Positions 3,012 through 21,048 of a stretch of DNA of 64,000 bases are shown here, piece after piece. The notes below the pieces were generated by a model, which saw only the letters and a program-made list of their open reading frames with translations, made no database searches and was not told where the DNA came from. Positions within the stretch are counted from its first letter, which is position 1, and each line of letters starts with the position of its first letter. A program made the translations under genes and the position numbers. The stretch comes from an uncultured Candidatus Saccharibacteria bacterium. Lineage in GTDB: Bacteria > Patescibacteriota > Saccharimonadia > Saccharimonadales > UBA7683. The stretch covers positions 313,336-377,335 of the forward strand of contig CAZWBG010000001.1 in assembly GCA_964632215.1 (NCBI GenBank), written 5' to 3'.

Positions 3012-3848
3012 CTATGCCGAGTCCTTTCGTATTACTTCATCCATAGTTTTACCGTTGGCATTTTTCCAGGTTGTCCAGGCGTTTATGTTACCGCCTACAC
3101 AGAATCCTCCAGCATGGTTAGGACTTTTGAAAGTAATGTTCTCGGTAAGCTCATAGTTATTATCTTCTCTCTGTTGAGCCTTTTCGGCCAGTAAAGATCG
3201 GCGCTCAGCTGAGGCGCTGGGATATCTGACAGGAAATAGCGGGCGTTCAGTACCATCAATAACGGAGCCAGCGAGTACCACAAACCGAGAACCCCTAAAC
3301 TGCGCCTTGGCGTCTGTTTTCCTAGTTTTACAGTACCAGACATCGCTTACATCGTCTTGTTTAGTTGAAAATAGACTGAAACCTAACGACTGAGCAATAA
3401 GTGCGATGTCTTCCAGAATCATCTGCAAGCTGTGGAGTTTGAATTCATGAATGTTGTTACGAGATGGAACAGTTTTATTGAGCACCTCCATAGCTGCGGT
3501 TGCTTTCGCCTTTTCTACTGCCAAAGATTCAAGATATTTAATATCACTTTTTTCGAGACTATTGGTAGTAGAGACTATTGCAACAGCCGTATCCCAGAAG
3601 TCTTTATTCTGGTCGTGATTCTTTACACGGTCATAAAAATTTTCTGCTTCGCCAATATAGACTTGGTTCTCGCCAGAATTAATAAGTAAGTATAGAGACG
3701 GTTGTCTTATCCTACTTTCATCCTTGATGTCGTTGAGTTTAATCCTCGGTACCACAAAAGCCTTAACTGCGCTTTCAGAAACCTCAATAATCCGTACCCC
3801 CTCAAGAGTGGCATCAGGCAGATACATTTGAATTAATCTAGGCATCAT
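3012..3848 (-). CDS. GIY-YIG-like nuclease family protein with DUF4357-like C-terminus
   Basis: N-terminal LYLLINSGENQVYIGEAENFYDRVKNHDQNKDFW is GIY-YIG-like. C-terminal FKSPNHAGGFCVGGNINAWTTWKNANGKT matches my memory of DUF4357. I moved the start to ATG 3848, which has AAAGGAA upstream. Confidence 0.6.
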   Translation of the reverse strand: MMPRLIQMYLPDATLEGVRIIEVSESAVKAFVVPRIKLNDIKDESRIRQPSLYLLINSGENQVYIGEAENFYDRVKNHDQNKDFWDTAVAIVSTTNSLEKSDIKYLESLAVEKAKATAAMEVLNKTVPSRNNIHEFKLHSLQMILEDIALIAQSLGFSLFSTKQDDVSDVWYCKTRKTDAKAQFRGSRFVVLAGSVIDGTERPLFPVRYPSASAERRSLLAEKAQQREDNNYELTENITFKSPNHAGGFCVGGNINAWTTWKNANGKTMDEVIRKDSA

Positions 3849-4689: not shown

Positions 4690-6254
4690 CTTACATCTCC
4701 AAATGGTGACTCTATACCCAACTCATCGGTATACTTCTTGATCTGAGCGTCGAGTTTAGTGGAATCTTTGTCAATCTTGCGGATTTGAGCCACCACTTCG
4801 TCAAGGTCAATTTCTTCCTCTTCTTCGAACGTATCTACGTAGCGTGGGATATTGAGGTTATAGTCATTCTCAGCTATCTCTGCAAGCTTTGCCGCGTAAC
4901 TATACTTGTCTTCTGTTTTTCTTTCTTGATACGTTGTAATGATTTTATCGATATCTTCAGGACGCAGATGATTCTGATTTTTACCTTTTTCAAAATACTT
5001 ACTTGCATCAATGAAGAGGACATCTTCGGGATGTGTTCGACATTTTTTAAAGACCAGGATACTAGCCGGAATTGATGTACCGAAAAAGAGATTAGCCGGC
5101 AAGCCGATAACTGCATCAAGATAATTTTTCTGCTCAATTAAGAATTTACGAATATGACCTTCGGCTGCACCGCGAAAGAGTACACCATGCGGCATAACTA
5201 CTGCCATGGTGCCATTCTCATCAAGTTGGTAGATCATATGCTGAATGAAAGCATAGTCCGCTTTACTTGCTGGTGCTAGCTTTCCATACTGCGCAAAACG
5301 ATCATCGCTTAGGTGGATTGGGTTGGCTGACCAGTTGGCGCTAAAAGGAGGATTCGCCACTATGGCTTCAAAGCGAAACTCTGCGTGTTGTGGGTGCTCT
5401 AGTGTATCTTCTTGTTTGATATCAAAATCGCTGTAGTGTACATCATGTAAGATCATGTTCATACGGGCTAGGTTGTAAGTGGTGTTATTCAGCTCTTGTC
5501 CGAAGAAACGATCCACATGGCTAACATACTTTGCCACACGCAGTAAAAGTGAACCTGACCCACATGTTGGGTCATACACGTTCTTAAGTTCTTTCTTGCC
5601 TGCCGTGACCAATCGAGCGAGAATTTGTGAAACTTCTTGTGGAGTGTAAAATTCACCAGCTTTTTTACCCGCACCGCTCGCAAACTGCCCGATGAGATAC
5701 TCATATGCATCTCCCAGAACATCGATCTGGGAGTTCTCTAGCTGAAAGTCAATCTTATCCAAATGTAATAGAACTTTGGAGATGAGCTCATTACGAGCGC
5801 TAACCGTTTTACCAAGTCTACTGGCGTTCAGATCAAGCTCTGAGAAGAGCTTATCAAAGTCTTCCTCGCTATCTGTGCCCATCGTGCTAGATTCAATGCT
5901 ATTTAGAATTCTCTCAAGGTCTTCGTTCAAGTCTTCATTAGTTGCACTATGTAGTGCTACGTAGTGGAATAGCTCGTTGGGCTTCAGGAAATAACCAAGT
6001 TTATCTAGTGCTGCTTTTCTAACTTCTTCAATATACACATCAGCGTTCTGTAGGTTATCATTAATTCCTTCATAGGTGATATTATCGGCTTCTAGTAGTT
6101 CGTTCGCGTAGAGTTCAATCTTCTCAGAAAGATATTTATAAAAAATAAAACCCAAGATATAATCCCGGAATTCATCAGGATTCATCTTACCTCGAAGCTC
6201 ATTAGCAATATTCCAGAGCTGAGTTTGTAATTGTTTCTTTTGATCTTCTGACAT
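4686..6254 (-). CDS. hsdM: type I R-M N6-adenine DNA methyltransferase HsdM
   Basis: 522 aa with an HsdM N-terminal domain, AdoMet motif VYDPTCGSGSLL and catalytic NPPF (IVANPPFSANW). Confidence 0.9.
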   Translation of the reverse strand: MSEDQKKQLQTQLWNIANELRGKMNPDEFRDYILGFIFYKYLSEKIELYANELLEADNITYEGINDNLQNADVYIEEVRKAALDKLGYFLKPNELFHYVALHSATNEDLNEDLERILNSIESSTMGTDSEEDFDKLFSELDLNASRLGKTVSARNELISKVLLHLDKIDFQLENSQIDVLGDAYEYLIGQFASGAGKKAGEFYTPQEVSQILARLVTAGKKELKNVYDPTCGSGSLLLRVAKYVSHVDRFFGQELNNTTYNLARMNMILHDVHYSDFDIKQEDTLEHPQHAEFRFEAIVANPPFSANWSANPIHLSDDRFAQYGKLAPASKADYAFIQHMIYQLDENGTMAVVMPHGVLFRGAAEGHIRKFLIEQKNYLDAVIGLPANLFFGTSIPASILVFKKCRTHPEDVLFIDASKYFEKGKNQNHLRPEDIDKIITTYQERKTEDKYSYAAKLAEIAENDYNLNIPRYVDTFEEEEEIDLDEVVAQIRKIDKDSTKLDAQIKKYTDELGIESPFGDVR

Positions 6255-6452
6255 CTAGCCTCCAAATGCTAAATCCAGCATAGCATTTTTATATCTGTTT
6301 TGAAATTAAATCTAGATTAAAATTGGGGTTATTTTTTGTTTGTTGAGATCTGGTATACTTGGGTGTAGGTGAAGGAGCTTAAGTTAATTATGAGAATTTA
6401 GCATCCAATTTAATTTTTGAACCAATGTTTGTAACTGGAAAGGATGTTTTGT

Positions 6453-6512
6453 ATGGCAAAAGGTAAAGGTAAACCTGGCCGCGAAGTTAGAAAACCAAAG
6501 AAAGATAAGTAG
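6453..6512 (+). CDS. possible 19-aa lysine-rich small ORF (MAKGKGKPGREVRKPKKDK)
   Basis: ATG preceded by GGAAAGGA and followed within 45 nt by a strong terminator. Too short for any statistical support. Confidence 0.25.
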   Translation: MAKGKGKPGREVRKPKKDK

Positions 6513-6555
6513 CTCACCGCTATTTCAGTGTAGTCGCCTATTGAAGGTCGAAAAA

Positions 6556-6580
6556 CCCCGCTCGTACTGAGCGGGGTTTT
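6556..6580. terminator. intrinsic terminator hairpin (bidirectional, A-run/T-run flanked)
   Basis: CCCCGCTC-gtact-GAGCGGGG followed by TTTT and preceded by AAAAA. Confidence 0.7.
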
Positions 6581-6605
6581 ATATAAAAAACTAGGAGAAT
6601 AACAA

Positions 6606-6649
6606 GTTAAGACAGGAGACCGCGTGAGCACACGATCTCCTGTCTTAAC
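6606..6649. repeat. perfect 14-bp inverted repeat with a 16-nt spacer
   Basis: GTTAAGACAGGAGA (6606-6619) and TCTCCTGTCTTAAC (6636-6649). Confidence 0.8.
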
Positions 6650-6764
6650 TCATGATATATCTATCTATAAAAGTTCTTTGGAGTAAATTGATACTCAGCA
6701 CAGGCTATCTCCTAATTATACTATTTTTAGTATATAAAGTCAACTGCTCCAATACGCCGTGTCT

Positions 6765-7004
6765 TTAGCTCAATTGAGTAGGAAGGTAACTAGACTCAAA
6801 CTGCGAGTTAACGTCAGCTAGGCTAAAAAGAGTAAAGATGGTGGCACCAATCACAAAAATGATTGCTGCGATAACTAAAATAATCAGATTACGGCTTAAT
6901 CCCCACTTTTCTTCTTCTGATTTTATCACCTTCCTCGCTTTAGTTACCTTTGTAACTTTGGTGGACTTCGGGATATTTGCTGTTTTTGCCATAAGCCCTA
7001 TCAT
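6765..7004 (-). CDS. small membrane protein
   Basis: 79-aa ORF with a basic N-terminus and one TM helix (LIILVIAAIIFVIGATIFTLF). Confidence 0.4.
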   Translation of the reverse strand: MIGLMAKTANIPKSTKVTKVTKARKVIKSEEEKWGLSRNLIILVIAAIIFVIGATIFTLFSLADVNSQFESSYLPTQLS

Positions 7005-7061
7005 ACGCTTTTTACTAGAGAGGAGGCAAGCACTACAGCGAAACGCTCCACAAGTTCGACC

Positions 7062-7364
7062 CTAGGTTCTTGCAGAAAGTGGAATATAAGCTTTGCTTTT
7101 TTTGACCGATATATTAGACGATGGGGCTAGAGTAGTAAGTGGTAATGGCACCACTAACTCGTATGCGGGCAGTGCTTTATAGGCCAACGTAGGTACCTCG
7201 GTGGCGACTTGGGGAGGGGTAGGTGACGTGGGCACACTACCCTGCTGAGCCTCTGGGTGGTGCAAGCTGATAAATAAACTCAGCAGGAATGTTATCGCAG
7301 TTATAACCAGTACTCCATTGAGTATCTGATCTACGTACGTGTGTACATAATAATTCTTACGCAT
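7062..7364 (-). CDS. small membrane protein, Pro/Thr-rich tail
   Basis: 100-aa ORF with TM helix VLVITAITFLLSLFISL. Confidence 0.4.
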   Translation of the reverse strand: MRKNYYVHTYVDQILNGVLVITAITFLLSLFISLHHPEAQQGSVPTSPTPPQVATEVPTLAYKALPAYELVVPLPLTTLAPSSNISVKKSKAYIPLSART

Positions 7365-7476
7365 GCCTCGCCTCCCTGACTAATGCTCAGTCTAGCCCAT
7401 CTCGCAAAGAAGTTCTGTGAGCTATTTCACACCAAAGTATGATCTATCTCACGATCAAGACATGGCCTAGAGAAGA

Positions 7477-9303
7477 CTAGGTTTTGTTTTGACGCTTTCG
7501 CTTGTTTGGGTCAATTTCTCGTTTGCGTAGGCGCAAGTTTTTTGGAGTTACTTCTAATAGTTCATCATTTTCGATGAAATCGAGACACTGTTCTAGGCTC
7601 AGTGGTGTTGGTGGGGTCAGTTGGACTACACCGTCAGATGATGTGCTTCGCATATTGGTTAAATGCTTTTCTTTCACTACGTTGATATCCATGTCTTCAC
7701 CACGAGAGTTAAGCCCAACCACTTGGCCAGCATAAACTTTGACACCTGGGCCGATGAAACAAGTTCCACGAGCTTCGGCATTTTGCAGAGCGTAGGCAGT
7801 CGTTGTACCAGTCTCAAAAGCAATGAGTACACCGTTTCGCAGTTGCTGCAAAGCAGGACCCTGTGGTTGGTAACCAGTCGTTAAGCTATTCATAATAACG
7901 GTACCCTTGGTGTTGGTAATAAGAATGTTACGCAGACCCAGCAACGCACGAGTTGGTAGTTCGTAGATCAATTTTGTAGCACCCTGAGAAGTCGTAAACT
8001 GCTCTTTTAAGGTTGCTCGACGTGTCCCAAGCTCCATCTGAATTGCACCAGCATGTTCAGCTGGCACTTCAATAATAAGCTCTTCGACAGGCTCAAGTAT
8101 TTTGCCATCTTCTTCTTTAGTTACCACTTGTGGGCGGCCAACTTCAAATTCAAAGCCTTCGCGGCGCATAGTTTCTATAAGTACAGAAAGATGGAGTTCA
8201 CCTCGTCCAGCAACCAAGAAGCCAATACCGTCTTCTTCAACCCGCAGGCCAATATTAGTCTCTAATTCGCGCTTGAGACGTTCGCTAATTTGGCGAGAAG
8301 TTGTAAATTCGCCTTCCAGACCCTTAAATGGACCGGTATTAGGACCAAGGTACACTTGTAGAGTTGGCGCCTCTACCTCAAGTACTGGCAAGGCCTCGGG
8401 CTTTTCGCTATCTGCTACTGTTTCACCAATCTGGATATCCTTCAGACCAGTTAGTTGCACAATATCACCTGCAATACCACCTGGTACCTCAAACTTACTA
8501 ACACCGCGACTCATAAAGACTAGCTCTACTTTAGCTTTTGTAAAACTGCCGTCTTTTTTGCACACCGTTACTATTTGTCCGGCCGCAACTGCGCCCTGGC
8601 TAATACGACCAATGGCGTACTTACCCTTAAAACTGTCGTGTGCTAAGGCAGTCACGAGCATCTGGAAAGGAGCCTCGGCATTAACGCGTGGAGCAGGAAC
8701 TTCGTTCATAATCGCCTCAAAAATAGATTCAAGATCGCCAGCTTCGGTTGAGTCGGCTGGTGGTGTTGTCCAGGCTTTACCTTCACGGCCAATTGCATAG
8801 TAAACTGGGTAGTGCAGTTGGTCTTCGTGAACAGCTAACTCTAAAAAGAGGTCAGCTAGCTCGTCTTCTACTTCTGTAATACGACTACCTGGCTTGTCAA
8901 TCTTGTTAATAACGACGATCGGTTTAAGACCGCCAGCTAGAGCTTTGGTTAATACAAACTTAGTCTGTGGCATCGGACCCTCTTGAGCGTCTACAATCAA
9001 CAAACAGCCATCGGCCATGTTCAGTGTTCGCTCTACTTCACCAGAAAAATCGGCATGTCCTGGAGTATCGATGATATTAATGCGGTAATCGTTATGCTGA
9101 ACGGCGGTAACTTTGGCAGTAATGGTAATACCACGCTCTTTTTCTTGGTCGCCACTATCCATGATGAGCTCTTGAGTCATCTCAGCTTGGTTGTCGCGGA
9201 AAGTCTGTGATTGCTTAAGCAACCCATCAACCAAAGTAGTCTTACCATGGTCAACGTGAGCAATAATAGCAATATTACGAATTTTTTTTGGGTCTTGTTG
9301 CAT
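7477..9303 (-). CDS. typA: translational GTPase TypA/BipA
   Basis: Motifs [23 protein letters not shown] and NKID, with TypA-type C-terminal domains. Start moved to ATG 9303, which has GAGGAGG upstream. Confidence 0.9.
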
Positions 9304-17755: not shown

Positions 17756-17784
17756 TTGACATTTTTTACAATATCTGCTATAAT
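17756..17784 (+). promoter_or_regulatory. consensus sigma70 promoter TTGACA-17-TATAAT (cassette A)
   Basis: Exact consensus hexamers with a 17-nt spacer, divergent from trmD. Confidence 0.7.
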
Positions 17785-17788
17785 CCCA

Positions 17789-17863
17789 TTAATCTTTTGG
17801 AGTTTTCAGGAGATAGCACCGTGTGCGGAAATATAAGTACGCACCAAACAACCAGGAGAAGAT
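17789..17863 (+). promoter_or_regulatory. conserved 5' leader RNA, copy 1
   Basis: 17789-17852 is 64/64 identical to 18467-18530. It contains the hairpin GUGCG-N12-CGCAC and three GGAG-type boxes. Confidence 0.6.
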
Positions 17864-18262
17864 ATGTTGGATACAGTCACGGAGTCCATCGATCTCGCTG
17901 AAGTCACCCCGGAACAGGAAGTACGAATCAGTATTGATGACAAGCACGCCTTATTGTTTCGTATCGACCCCCCTTCCATCTTCGATGAAAGCTATGTTTT
18001 CGGTATTGAGATCTCACGTCTCAAGCTGATCATGGGTGCATCCGAAGGTCACGTCGGTGGCCAATTCATCGACCTCAATGAGGTCAATATGGATGACATA
18101 ATCGAGGTAGTGGGGTTCATCGTTCCGCCAAGTCCCCATACCAGTGTGCAGCGCAACCTGGAGATCGGAAGAAGCTTCTATATCACGGGCGTTGGCTACG
18201 AGTACCTTCGACAAGAGACGCGCGGAACCATCACCTCCATCGAGGTATATGAAAGGTTTTAG
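17864..18262 (+). CDS. small hypothetical protein, cassette A (paralog of 18542-18955)
   Basis: 132 aa with AGGAGAAG as RBS. Shares IEV..IVP.S..T.V...L..G......ITG.GY......G.I.SIEV with cassette B. Confidence 0.6.
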   Translation: MLDTVTESIDLAEVTPEQEVRISIDDKHALLFRIDPPSIFDESYVFGIEISRLKLIMGASEGHVGGQFIDLNEVNMDDIIEVVGFIVPPSPHTSVQRNLEIGRSFYITGVGYEYLRQETRGTITSIEVYERF

Positions 18263-18291: not shown

Positions 18292-18344
18292 GGGCAGTTG
18301 TATCTAAGTAGCACATTTGGTGCTAACAAACGATATGACTGCCC
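18292..18344 (+). other. 13-bp-stem bipartite hairpin preceding hammerhead 1
   Basis: GGGCAGUUGUAUC pairs with GAUAUGACUGCCC, enclosing the inner hairpin UAGCAC-AUUUG-GUGCUA. It covaries with copy 2. Confidence 0.7.
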
Positions 18345-18347
18345 AAA

Positions 18348-18402
18348 ATCACTTCAGTAATTGTGTAATTACTCTGATGAGTTCAAAAGAACGAAAAGTG
18401 AT
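18348..18402 (+). ncRNA. type III hammerhead ribozyme, copy 1
   Basis: AUCACUU C AGUAAUU-GUGU-AAUUACU CUGAUGA GUUC-AAAA-GAAC GAA AAGUGAU. All invariant core positions are present (C3-A9, G12-A14, A15.1-U16.1, C17, G10.1-C11.1). Predicted cleavage is between 18355 and 18356. Confidence 0.85.
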
Positions 18403-18432: not shown

Positions 18433-18461
18433 TTGACTTATCTTGTAATATCTGCTATAAT
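18433..18461 (+). promoter_or_regulatory. sigma70 promoter TTGACT-17-TATAAT (cassette B)
   Basis: Starts 31 nt after hammerhead 1. There is no terminator between them. Confidence 0.65.
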
Positions 18462-18466
18462 TTAGC

Positions 18467-18541
18467 TTAATCTTTTGGAGTTTTCAGGAGATAGCACCGT
18501 GTGCGGAAATATAAGTACGCACCAAACAACTAGGAGAAATT
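18467..18541 (+). promoter_or_regulatory. conserved 5' leader RNA, copy 2
   Basis: Identical to copy 1 over 64 nt. Confidence 0.6.
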
Positions 18542-18955
18542 ATGCTGGCAACGCAGCAGGCTGTTGATCTTTCGACCTGCAACACGGATCAAGTTATACG
18601 TGTCGTATTCAGTGACAAAGACGGGTTCGGGTCCATCTTCGACTTGAGACTTAAGACACAAGACGACTCGTTCACCGTCAGCGATGACTACCTTACGGGG
18701 GTAGAAATTGCGGTTATTACGACCACCTTCGAAAGCATCGACCCTAAACCAGGTGGCCGCCACCTCAAGAGCAATGAAACCACACGCATGATCGAGGTCA
18801 CAGAGCTCATCGTTCCTGCGAGTGCCTACACCAACGTGTGTCGGCATCTAACAGTTGGTAACTCCTCTCTACCACTCATTACTGGCATAGGATACCTCAG
18901 GCTTGCAGACGAGATCCACGGATCCATTAAGAGCATTGAAGTCAGAGCAGCCTGA
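18542..18955 (+). CDS. small hypothetical protein, cassette B
   Basis: 137 aa. A diverged paralog of cassette A, at roughly one third identity by eye. Confidence 0.6.
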   Translation: MLATQQAVDLSTCNTDQVIRVVFSDKDGFGSIFDLRLKTQDDSFTVSDDYLTGVEIAVITTTFESIDPKPGGRHLKSNETTRMIEVTELIVPASAYTNVCRHLTVGNSSLPLITGIGYLRLADEIHGSIKSIEVRAA

Positions 18956-18980: not shown

Positions 18981-19033
18981 GGGCAACCATGTCTAAACAG
19001 TACATTCGGTACTCGTAAACGATGTGGTTGCCC
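18981..19033 (+). other. 13-bp-stem bipartite hairpin preceding hammerhead 2
   Basis: GGGCAACCAUGUC pairs with GAUGUGGUUGCCC, enclosing the inner hairpin AGUAC-AUUCG-GUACU. Changes relative to copy 1 are compensatory. Confidence 0.7.
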
Positions 19034-19036
19034 AAA

Positions 19037-19091
19037 ATCACTTCAGTAATTGTGTAATTACTCTGATGAGTTCAAAAGAACGAAAAGTGAT
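19037..19091 (+). ncRNA. type III hammerhead ribozyme, copy 2
   Basis: Sequence identical to copy 1. Predicted cleavage is between 19044 and 19045. Confidence 0.85.
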
Positions 19092-19118
19092 GTGAGCACA
19101 AATTAGATAGAAACTAAA

Positions 19119-19145
19119 AGAACCCCGTAAGTGCAGGGTTCTTTT
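19119..19145. terminator. bidirectional intrinsic terminator (cassette B converging on the KH gene)
   Basis: AGAACCC-cgtaagtgca-GGGTTCT flanked by AAAA and TTTT. Confidence 0.6.
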
Positions 19146-19239
19146 ATCACATATAAAGCTCTCTAGTTTTCCTAGACTCGCAAGCGAGCTTTGGTTTTGT
19201 CATGTGTTTATTTTTGTTTGTCCGTGGTGAACATAAGAA

Positions 19240-20334: not shown

Positions 20335-20363
20335 ATTATACAGATGATGACCCCTAAAGTCAA
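20335..20363 (-). promoter_or_regulatory. sigma70 promoter TTGACT-17-TATAAT for rpsP
   Basis: Read on the minus strand. It starts 17 nt downstream of hammerhead 3. Confidence 0.6.
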
Positions 20364-20380
20364 CTGAGGTACACTACTTT

Positions 20381-20435
20381 GTCACTTTTCGCGTTTTTAC
20401 GCTCGTCAGAGTAACCGCACAGTTACTGAAGTGAC
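20381..20435 (-). ncRNA. type III hammerhead ribozyme, copy 3
   Basis: Minus strand: GUCACUU C AGUAACU-GUGC-GGUUACU CUGACGA GCGU-AAAA-ACGC GAA AAGUGAC. The core is intact (N7 = C is allowed). All three stems carry compensatory changes relative to copies 1 and 2. Cleavage falls after the C complementary to 20428. Confidence 0.8.
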
Positions 20436-20437
20436 AC

Positions 20438-20524
20438 GGGTTAGCGGAGAAAAAGATAATAGGGAGAGTCAGTATGAGCTGACATCGAATCCATATTATA
20501 GAACTTTTTCTACGACGCTACCCC
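20438..20524 (-). other. long imperfect GGG...CCC hairpin preceding hammerhead 3
   Basis: GGGGUAGCG pairs with CGCUAACCC, AGAAAAAG with CUUUUUCU, and AUAAUA with UAUUAU. CCUGG lies just upstream. Confidence 0.5.
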
Positions 20525-20587
20525 ATGACCTGGAATCTCCAGGGTTTTACTCGAGTTTAACGCTTCGAGCACGCGTAACGCCCTTAT

Positions 20588-20941
20588 CTAGGAGACTGTC
20601 TTGCTGTTGAGAATGATCTCTCGGACGACACCAGTTCTCCCATTGTTGATAAAAATGATACCGCCCACTCGGAATATCCGAGAGATAACGTTATGTTTAG
20701 GATATCGAGTGACAACACCATGTATGTCAGTGTCCGTCTGAATGGCAACACCGTTGATATTATCCCGAGCAATTTTCGGCTCCTTCACCGTGATGAAGTG
20801 CCAAGTTGAATTTTCCGTACACACGGTGACAACGTCACCGGGGTCAGTACTAGCGAAATCGAGTTCGACTTGACGTATACCATCTCGAACACGATTGTCC
20901 GAGAACCTTGCTACTCCGGATATCCCGCTATGTTCATCCAT
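20588..20941 (-). CDS. small hypothetical protein, cassette C
   Basis: 117 aa with GGAGAT as RBS. Only weak C-terminal resemblance to cassettes A and B. Confidence 0.55.
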   Translation of the reverse strand: MDEHSGISGVARFSDNRVRDGIRQVELDFASTDPGDVVTVCTENSTWHFITVKEPKIARDNINGVAIQTDTDIHGVVTRYPKHNVISRIFRVGGIIFINNGRTGVVREIILNSKTVS

Positions 20942-21019
20942 TGGATCTCCTGTCCAATAGTTATCTGTCAGCGTTTCTAACAGATATAAACATTCGCCGA
21001 ATGCGAATGTTCAATATAA

Positions 21020-21048
21020 ATAATACAATTTAAGTGTTATTGGGTCAA
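21020..21048 (-). promoter_or_regulatory. sigma70 promoter TTGACC-17-TATTAT (cassette C)
   Basis: Lies immediately after the rnc stop. Followed by a leader hairpin AACAUUCGC/GCGAAUGUU (20989-21011). Confidence 0.55.

Follow-up and report, generated by a model that had tools for sequence, protein, structure and literature searches.

The locus analysed here lies in a 64,000-nt stretch of contig CAZWBG010000001.1 (assembly GCA_964632215.1, positions 313,336–377,335 of the forward strand), referred to throughout as the window, from an uncultured Candidatus Saccharibacteria bacterium. The genes there run in the order trmD, KH-domain gene, rpsP, rnc, NUDIX hydrolase and nusB, with leuS further on, and Pfam labels for these operon genes were taken from syntenic relatives. 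The nearest relatives of rpsP (60–79% local identity) are labelled as Saccharibacteria, Saccharimonadales or Nomurabacteria; the host is a small-genome, Saccharibacteria-like bacterium of the candidate phyla radiation (CPR). Three cassettes are inserted among these genes, each composed of a promoter, a structured leader, a small open reading frame (ORF), a long hairpin and a hammerhead ribozyme, so that three hammerhead copies occur within 2.1 kb, each 3' of a different small ORF. The subject of this work is copy 3, placed in the predicted 3' untranslated region (3' UTR) of ORF3, which has a putative promoter of its own and lies between rnc and the rpsP–KH operon. Copy 3 is made up as follows.

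20381–20435, minus strand: hammerhead copy 3, type III, 55 nt, supported by sequence, fold, the covariance model R1 (see below), Rfam family RF00008 and chance controls

20429–20435 with 20381–20387, minus strand: stem III, GUCACUU with AAGUGAC; one further pair is possible (20380–20436)

20428, minus strand: C17, with predicted cleavage between 20428 and 20427

20421–20427 with 20410–20416, minus strand: stem I, AGUAACU with GGUUACU, loop GUGC at 20417–20420

20403–20409, minus strand: core segment CUGACGA

20399–20402 with 20391–20394, minus strand: stem II, GCGU with ACGC, loop AAAA at 20395–20398

20388–20390, minus strand: core segment GAA

The core is complete (C3 U4 G5 A6 N7 G8 A9 and G12 A13 A14, with N7 being C). 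The A15.1–U16.1 pair is formed by A 20387 and U 20429, stem II is closed by G10.1–C11.1 (G 20402 with C 20391) and nucleotide 17 is C, that is, not G. Loops cap stems I and II, stem III being open. Both the minimum free energy and the centroid fold of the 55-mer gave the hammerhead three-way junction, which was retained when the element was folded in a 251-nt context. Judged by sequence and structure, the minus strand of 20381–20435 is a genuine type III hammerhead. An earlier note on this DNA had read the same strand as a 55-nt hammerhead with an intact invariant core and C at position 7; its sequence and coordinates proved exact, every core nucleotide was found, and the hammerhead reading itself was borne out by the folds, by shuffle controls and by more than 240 related genome and viral sequences.

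Copy 3 was compared with the two other hammerheads in the window.

18348–18402, plus strand: hammerhead copy 1, 3' of ORF1 and of the hairpin at 18292–18344

19037–19091, plus strand: hammerhead copy 2, same sequence as copy 1, 3' of ORF2 and its hairpin

Copies 1 and 2 match each other at 100% of their positions and share a strand, at a spacing of 689 nt. Copy 3 differs from them at 13 of 55 positions, and all 13 differences are compatible with the fold and the core. Ten of these belong to five base pairs in which both partners have changed and pairing is kept (three such pairs in stem II, one each in stems I and III), and the other three are a change from U–A to U–G at the top of stem I, a pyrimidine-to-pyrimidine change in loop 1 and N7. 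When 13 random substitutions were introduced instead, a valid hammerhead was left in one of 2 000 000 simulations (∼5 × 10−7). Because all 13 changes fit the fold against so low a random expectation, the argument from covariation is sound. The individual substitutions noted earlier (GUUC/GAAC to GCGU/ACGC in stem II, U–A to C–G in stem I and a terminal A–U to G–C in stem III) were all correct, and the three-copy alignment, the simulation and the covariation among relatives agree with the claim that they reflect selection on the fold and not chance.

The same controls dispose of a chance match to the hammerhead consensus. Such a match might be suspected since the motif is short, and the bare core CTGANGA-N(8–30)-GAAA occurs ten times in the window against four expected. 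A permissive type III descriptor (a minimum of four pairs in stem I, three in stem II and four in stem III, with loops of 3–12 nt) nevertheless returned just the three hammerhead copies from the 64 kb of the window and nothing from 1000 block-shuffled windows; the compensated changes relative to the paralogues have p ∼5 × 10−7; copy 3 scores 63.4 bits with R1 and 33.6 bits with Rfam, both over its full length; and features that the search pattern does not impose are common to hundreds of relatives. A chance match, to which we give practically no credence, is refuted by the shuffle and substitution controls.

No hammerhead was reported by Rfam in the whole window at the gathering score. In a scan with an E-value threshold copies 1 and 2 matched RF00008 with 42.8 bits, the gathering score being 48.5. 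Copy 3, submitted as an isolated 65-nt piece, gave 33.6 bits (E = 2 × 10−6) over model positions 1–54 of 54 in an alignment free of flagged non-canonical pairs, and it was not picked up in E-value Rfam scans of 221 nt and 3.4 kb; since the full-length match appears when the element is searched almost alone, these misses are losses to the speed filters. The cmsearch check proposed in the earlier note was accordingly positive in that RF00008 aligned over its full length and fell short in that the score stayed under the gathering score. Standard Rfam annotation would label none of the three copies. In 18 loci with about 39 R1 matches none was found at the Rfam gathering score either, every member tested being under it. 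With RF00008 (clan CL00010) the window family shares CUGANGA, GAA, the A15.1–U16.1 pair, C at H17, the three-helix junction and the open stem III. The RF00008 consensus differs in its longer loop 2 (eight model positions) and in its loop 1, whereas in the window family stem I has a constant length of 7 bp, a closing U–R and a GYGY loop, and stem II has 4 bp and an AAAA or GAAA loop.

Relatives were retrieved with a pattern consisting of U16.1–C17, an 18-nt stem–loop I of free sequence, CUGANGAG, N3-AAAA-N3 and CGAAA, which imposes only the core, the sequence of loop 2 and fixed lengths and leaves stem pairing free. Related genome loci that carry the hammerhead family or the syntenic operon are given L numbers. 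In one genome per prokaryotic species the pattern found at least 120 loci, compared with about 17 chance matches expected by our own arithmetic, and in the IMG/VR viral contigs it again found at least 120. The counts that follow refer to the matches listed. By label, 61 genome loci are of Saccharibacteria type and 32 belong to other Patescibacteria (together ∼78%); 11 are unclassified and 16 carry other labels, among them two malformed chance matches. Well formed structures were present in 119 of 129 raw genome matches (stem I with at least five contiguous pairs, stem II with at least three of four and stem III with at least four) and in 123 of 126 raw viral matches (at least five, three of four and three, respectively), and stem I was paired at 7/7 positions in nearly all of them. 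The 13 core nucleotides were invariant in the well formed matches, bar a few divergent array members, and the genome matches also have an invariant U15 and a GYGY loop 1, neither of which is imposed by the pattern. Position N7 is C in 24 of 118 family members, as it is in copy 3. For 118 distinct sequences 92% of the cells were paired, as against 62% with shuffled and 31–45% with slid partners, and 15 of the 18 pairs had changed on both sides. Since at least 120 genome and at least 120 viral loci, mostly well formed, were recovered, the elements are, as judged from their sequences, a large type III hammerhead subfamily of CPR bacteria and phage contigs.

A covariance model, R1, was built from the retrieved family sequences. 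It scored copies 1, 2 and 3 at 71.3, 71.3 and 63.4 bits. When the filters were switched off, the rest of the window held no match above 8.3 bits and no second minus-strand hammerhead. Hammerheads outside its training set scored 73.9 bits (L124) and 56.8 bits (L125), and loop 2 was AAAA or GAAA in matches found by R1 alone. The conserved U-GYGY-R of loop 1 together with the AAAA/GAAA loop 2 suggests a tertiary loop–loop contact, a feature that type III hammerheads require for fast cleavage. Most family members listed are solitary; arrays of several ribozymes on one strand, parted by small ORFs, occur in L004, L041, L092 and L036. Four to six same-strand hammerheads are found at L004 3338–6412 (plus), L041 1536–3636 (plus) and L092 1355–3311 (minus). 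Some array members have extended insertions in stem II or an altered 10.1/11.1 pair, for example CUGAUGAU...GGAUGAAA, and those with an altered stem II may be inactive. When a viral hammerhead was compared by BLAST with isolated phage genomes, the only match was a weak one to Pelagibacter phage HTVC109P.

The alignment also bears on whether the element acts as DNA, as a repeat or recombination site resembling an integron attC hairpin in which the hammerhead match is incidental or vestigial. A structure-conserved, sequence-variable hairpin does end each ORF, and the tandem arrays resemble integron cassettes. A DNA hairpin would, however, give no reason for the near-invariance of 13 core nucleotides. 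The wobble pairs are strand-specific, a U–G at the top of stem I being present in 48 of the 118 sequences, and therefore fit an RNA made from this strand. Homologous bacterial ribozymes cleave in vitro and in vivo (PMC3088659), and no integrase or recombinase gene was noticed among the called genes, no dedicated search for attC or IntI having been made. A DNA-level site is thus a very improbable reading.

Around copy 3 the cassette is arranged as follows, in the direction of transcription.

20936–21048, minus strand: cassette 3 promoter-like sequence TTGACC-17-TATTAT (21048–21020) and a 5' leader of three hairpins

20588–20941, minus strand: ORF3, 117 amino acids, with the motif PGDVVTVxTxxSxW of a rare family of small beta-rich proteins

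20436–20526, minus strand: 91-nt imperfect hairpin in the ORF3 3' UTR, directly abutting stem III (gap of 0 nt); the 3' UTR has z = −3.67

20335–20363, minus strand: rpsP promoter-like sequence TTGACT-17-TATAAT, beginning 17 nt downstream of copy 3

The promoters of the cassettes are near-consensus and of the sigma-70 type. The 91-nt hairpin was retained in the 251-nt fold together with copy 3, and no terminator-like site was found between ORF3 and the rpsP promoter. According to the earlier note copy 3 follows a small GC-rich ORF and ends 17 nt before the rpsP promoter; TTGACT-17-TATAAT was found at that distance, and the ORF at 20588–20941 exists on the same strand, but it is GC-rich only marginally (0.469 against a mean of 0.450, s.d. 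0.042, for the long ORFs of the window).

From this arrangement we propose that the ORF3 3' UTR hammerhead acts as a factor-independent maker of mRNA 3' ends and as an insulator from the rpsP operon, a role that we hold to be probable, with moderate confidence, because the cut would leave a hairpin-protected end where no intrinsic terminator precedes the rpsP operon. The ribozyme would fold while ORF3 is being transcribed and would cut between 20428 and 20427, just 3' of C17. On the upstream side this would yield an ORF3 mRNA whose 3' terminus consists of the 91-nt hairpin followed by eight further nucleotides, GUCACUUC, and bears a 2',3'-cyclic phosphate; such an end should withstand 3' exonucleases. 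The downstream product would start with a 5'-hydroxyl and carry the read-through into the region of the rpsP promoter. In this way the cassette could be uncoupled from the housekeeping operon with neither a terminator nor a host nuclease. The same hairpin-plus-hammerhead module appears to close the two other cassettes of the window and many cassettes in CPR genomes and phage contigs.

The context of the wider family was examined for the same arrangement. An ORF of at least 80 amino acids on the same strand ends within 300 nt upstream of 88% of the ribozymes, compared with 50% for the opposite strand. These upstream ORFs are not related to one another (116 of them fall into 110 BLAST components), and most have no Pfam domain; 23 Pfam families were seen, none of them in more than two members. 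Downstream, 76 same-strand ORFs fall into 61 Pfam families, including S2, S6, S16, topoisomerase, peptidyl-tRNA hydrolase and Cpn10, so that the downstream gene is often a housekeeping gene. The 50 nt before stem III had z < −2 in 44% of the genome loci versus 12–16% of control segments, and in 71% of the viral contigs versus 7–8% of controls. The gap between hairpin and stem III was 0–2 nt in 64 of 119 genome loci and in 97 of 109 viral loci, the gap of copy 3 being 0 nt. In the literature searched no description of a hairpin abutting a hammerhead on its upstream side was found.

Four relatives (L122–L125) have the same gene order, rnc–[gap]–rpsP–KH–[gap]–trmD, without phage genes. The gap between the KH gene and trmD, which in the window holds cassettes 1 and 2, contains in L124 an ORF without recognizable relatives on the opposite strand, followed by a hairpin, a hammerhead and a terminator; L125 repeats this order with another ORF, and in L122 the gap is empty. 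The ORFs in this slot and the remaining parts of cassettes 1 and 2 are as follows.

17864–18262, plus strand, window: ORF1, 132 amino acids, slot ORF of cassette 1; promoter at 17756–17784 and hairpin at 18292–18344

18542–18955, plus strand, window: ORF2, 137 amino acids, slot ORF of cassette 2; promoter at 18433–18461 and hairpin at about 18981–19033

19115–19146, window: bidirectional terminator 3' of copy 2

6702–7319, minus strand, L124: slot ORF

6335–6763, minus strand, L125: slot ORF

6854–7288, minus strand, L123: slot ORF

The slot frame common to the window, L124 and L125 comprises a promoter, a near-identical leader start, a hairpin, a hammerhead and a terminator. The slot ORFs of the relatives are unrelated to each other and have GC contents of 0.605–0.664, as against 0.43–0.46 for the loci.

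Several of these observations weigh against the proposed role. None of the four syntenic relatives has a hammerhead in the gap between rnc and rpsP, and L122 and L125 carry orphan ORFs in this gap with no detectable hammerhead; the position of copy 3 is therefore specific to its lineage. In L123 the slot between KH and trmD keeps an ORF, a hairpin and a terminator and the ribozyme is lost, so that the ribozyme is dispensable in some settings. A terminator follows copy 2 and the ribozymes of L124 and L125, and 3'-end formation by the ribozyme is thus partly redundant there. A strong promoter-like site lies within 120 nt downstream in only 13% of the family (0–2% of controls), for which reason insulation of the next promoter is not a general function. 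All three copies in the window score under the RF00008 gathering score (33.6 and 42.8 bits against 48.5). Finally, the retrieval pattern fixes the core and loop 2 and the pairing filter preceded the covariation count, which makes the family statistics somewhat favourable, though more than 92% of the raw matches passed the filter.

The slots raise the question of whom the ribozyme would serve. It may be an active ribozyme that forms the conserved 3' boundary of phage-derived, moron-like cassettes and serves the cassette, not the host; we think this rather unlikely. Promoter, leader, foreign ORF, hairpin and hammerhead would then move together between phages and CPR genomes, which we likewise hold doubtful, and to a similarly low degree we entertain the idea that the conserved ends could provide homology for the swapping of cargo at fixed chromosomal slots. 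The subfamily is abundant in viral contigs, as this reading would predict; the slot between KH and trmD holds unrelated ORFs in a similar frame in the window, L124 and L125, and the ORFs of the relatives have the deviating GC content given above; cassettes 1 and 2 share leaders and ribozymes, while their proteins are only about 32–35% identical; and arrays are found in L004, L041, L092 and L036 and an empty slot in L122. Against it, no recombinase was noticed among the called genes near the cassettes, no search having been aimed at recombinase, integrase or transposase genes, and no target-site duplications came to attention. In the window the surroundings are those of a housekeeping operon and not of a prophage, the mechanism of cargo exchange is putative, and divergence of the genes in place combined with purifying selection on the RNA ends would look alike. 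A cassette-centred reading is compatible with the preferred one, 3'-end formation and insulation, and does not exclude it. We tentatively raise the possibility that the hairpin plus hammerhead is a portable, host-factor-independent 3' module of moron-like cassettes that are shared by phages and CPR bacteria and exchanged at fixed slots (KH–trmD and rnc–rpsP), protecting the cargo mRNA and shielding essential operons. If true, this would give many such hammerheads a concrete function and link them to gene uptake by reduced genomes.

The identity and common strand of copies 1 and 2 would also fit hammerheads that excise unit-length RNAs which are then ligated to circles, as in viroid-like RNAs and retrozymes. 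Read-through would free a 689-nt RNA with ends able to re-form stem III, and in circular hammerhead RNAs, too, stem III is the open one. Circle formation is conceivable for this 689-nt unit, as far as the sequence goes; copy 3 cannot excise a unit, because R1 with filters off found no same-strand partner for it anywhere in the window. Each cassette has a near-consensus promoter just downstream of the preceding ribozyme, most family members are solitary, and a search for circles or spliced RNAs derived from clustered bacterial hammerheads found none (Perreault et al., PMC3088659). We regard excision into circles as highly unlikely.

The preferred reading of copy 3 as a 3'-end maker and insulator has precedents. 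Clustered hammerheads of bacteria and phages were described as flanking single genes of non-constant identity; they cleaved in vitro as well as in E. coli, and the function suggested for them was the processing of long transcripts (Perreault et al., 2011; PMC3088659). A review from 2019 continued to call the role of bacterial and phage hammerheads undetermined (PMC6765202). The window resembles the 2011 systems in having several hammerheads within a few kilobases, each after a mostly hypothetical, non-conserved gene, and processing into gene-length mRNAs was proposed there too (PMC3088659). It differs in its CPR host, in lying in a ribosomal-protein operon and not in a recognizable prophage, in having one promoter per cassette and in the consistently abutting upstream hairpin. 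The genes around the cassettes (trmD, KH, rpsP, rnc, nusB and leuS) do not form a prophage or integrase neighbourhood. No relevant literature was found on hammerheads in Saccharibacteria, Patescibacteria or the candidate phyla radiation. Two better known devices offer analogies. In T7 early mRNA the host RNase III cuts within a hairpin; by analogy the window module would also cut 3' of an inter-cistron hairpin, leave a protective 3' stem–loop and separate units, except that its cut would be self-made and would yield a 2',3'-cyclic phosphate and a 5'-hydroxyl. RiboJ is a synthetic insulator placed in the 5' UTR, with a hairpin downstream of the ribozyme; the likeness would lie in a hammerhead and hairpin that uncouple a gene from its transcriptional context, the window module differing by its position in the 3' UTR and by a hairpin upstream of the ribozyme.

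The kind of element is essentially known since 2011, and copy 3 adds a member. For specialists in ribozyme genomics this is an ordinary finding, yet a useful one, since the subfamily is missed by standard Rfam annotation, is common in CPR genomes and viral contigs and has a regular hairpin and gene context. The abutting hairpin, the orphan upstream genes, often of foreign composition, and the housekeeping genes downstream make its function testable. Protein-free formation of protected 3' ends together with insulation would, if true, explain why ribozymes stand beside variable accessory genes, and the module would be a compact natural part for synthetic biology.

The products of the cassette ORFs had no match in Pfam or PHROG. 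An exhaustive search of 1.84 billion representative proteins gave 18 distant homologues of ORF3, with a clearly conserved motif and no annotation, from which ORF3 looks like a real gene; the homologue in L118 also has a hammerhead after it. The ORF3 profile had no significant match in the PDB or Pfam, hints of SH3/KOW-like folds being weak (E > 0.02), and word-indexed homologue searches with ORF3 and ORF1 returned the query alone. There was no detectable relationship between ORF3 and ORF1 or ORF2. For ORF3 and for ORF1/ORF2, AlphaFold reached a pLDDT of about 35, and the models were unusable. Two Logan contigs contain the locus; both are 100% identical to the window, so that no variation within the population is visible. 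The organism is also present in the reads of SRR16797976 and SRR16797980.

The leaders of cassettes 1 and 2 (17785–17866 and 18463–18544, plus strand) are nearly identical over about 80 nt, with proteins only ∼32–35% identical behind them, and the hairpins of the two cassettes differ by compensatory changes. The leader start, (A/G)AUCUUUUGGA, is also present in L124 and L125. These leaders had no match in Rfam and are not RAGATH-10, and nhmmer returned no convincing relatives (best E = 0.0015). The cassette 3 leader (20936–21016, minus strand) is a different structured RNA, with three consecutive hairpins (z = −7.65). Its first hairpin (21013–20987) looks as if it also served as the rnc terminator and begins a few nucleotides past the −10 box of cassette 3; in the third, the loop contains the Shine–Dalgarno sequence and the stem contains the AUG.

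The acronym RAGATH is commonly read as RNAs associated with genes associated with twister and hammerhead ribozymes, which agrees with the context found here. RAGATH-10 (RF03147) has no match in the window; in L124, L053 and L046 it precedes ORFs that are trailed by the hammerhead family of the window, forming the 5' UTR of these ORFs up to the start codon. Its occurrences are listed here (43.5 and 79.7 bits, gathering score 41.2).

7320–7397, minus strand, L124: RAGATH-10

3205–3283, plus strand, L053: RAGATH-10

About 7841–7910, minus strand, L046: RAGATH-10

The outer helix of RAGATH-10 takes in the Shine–Dalgarno sequence GGAG, an overlap that suggests translational control. L123 carries a gene for a 23S rRNA intervening-sequence protein and a GIY-YIG nuclease gene in the operon, at 5631–5990 and 7402–7683, and insertions seem to gather in this part of the operon. 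A further element of about 45 nt, AAAGCUCGCUUGCGAGUCUAGGAAAACUAGAGAGCUUUAUAUGUG, lies in the 3' UTR of the KH gene just before the terminator (window 19149–19195, minus strand) and recurs at L122 6240–6285, L123 6680–6733, L124 6440–6510 and L125 6090–6155. It has no match in Rfam, contains two covarying pairs in its inner hairpin and is near-invariant in genomes that share only about 65–75% identity in their rpsP proteins.

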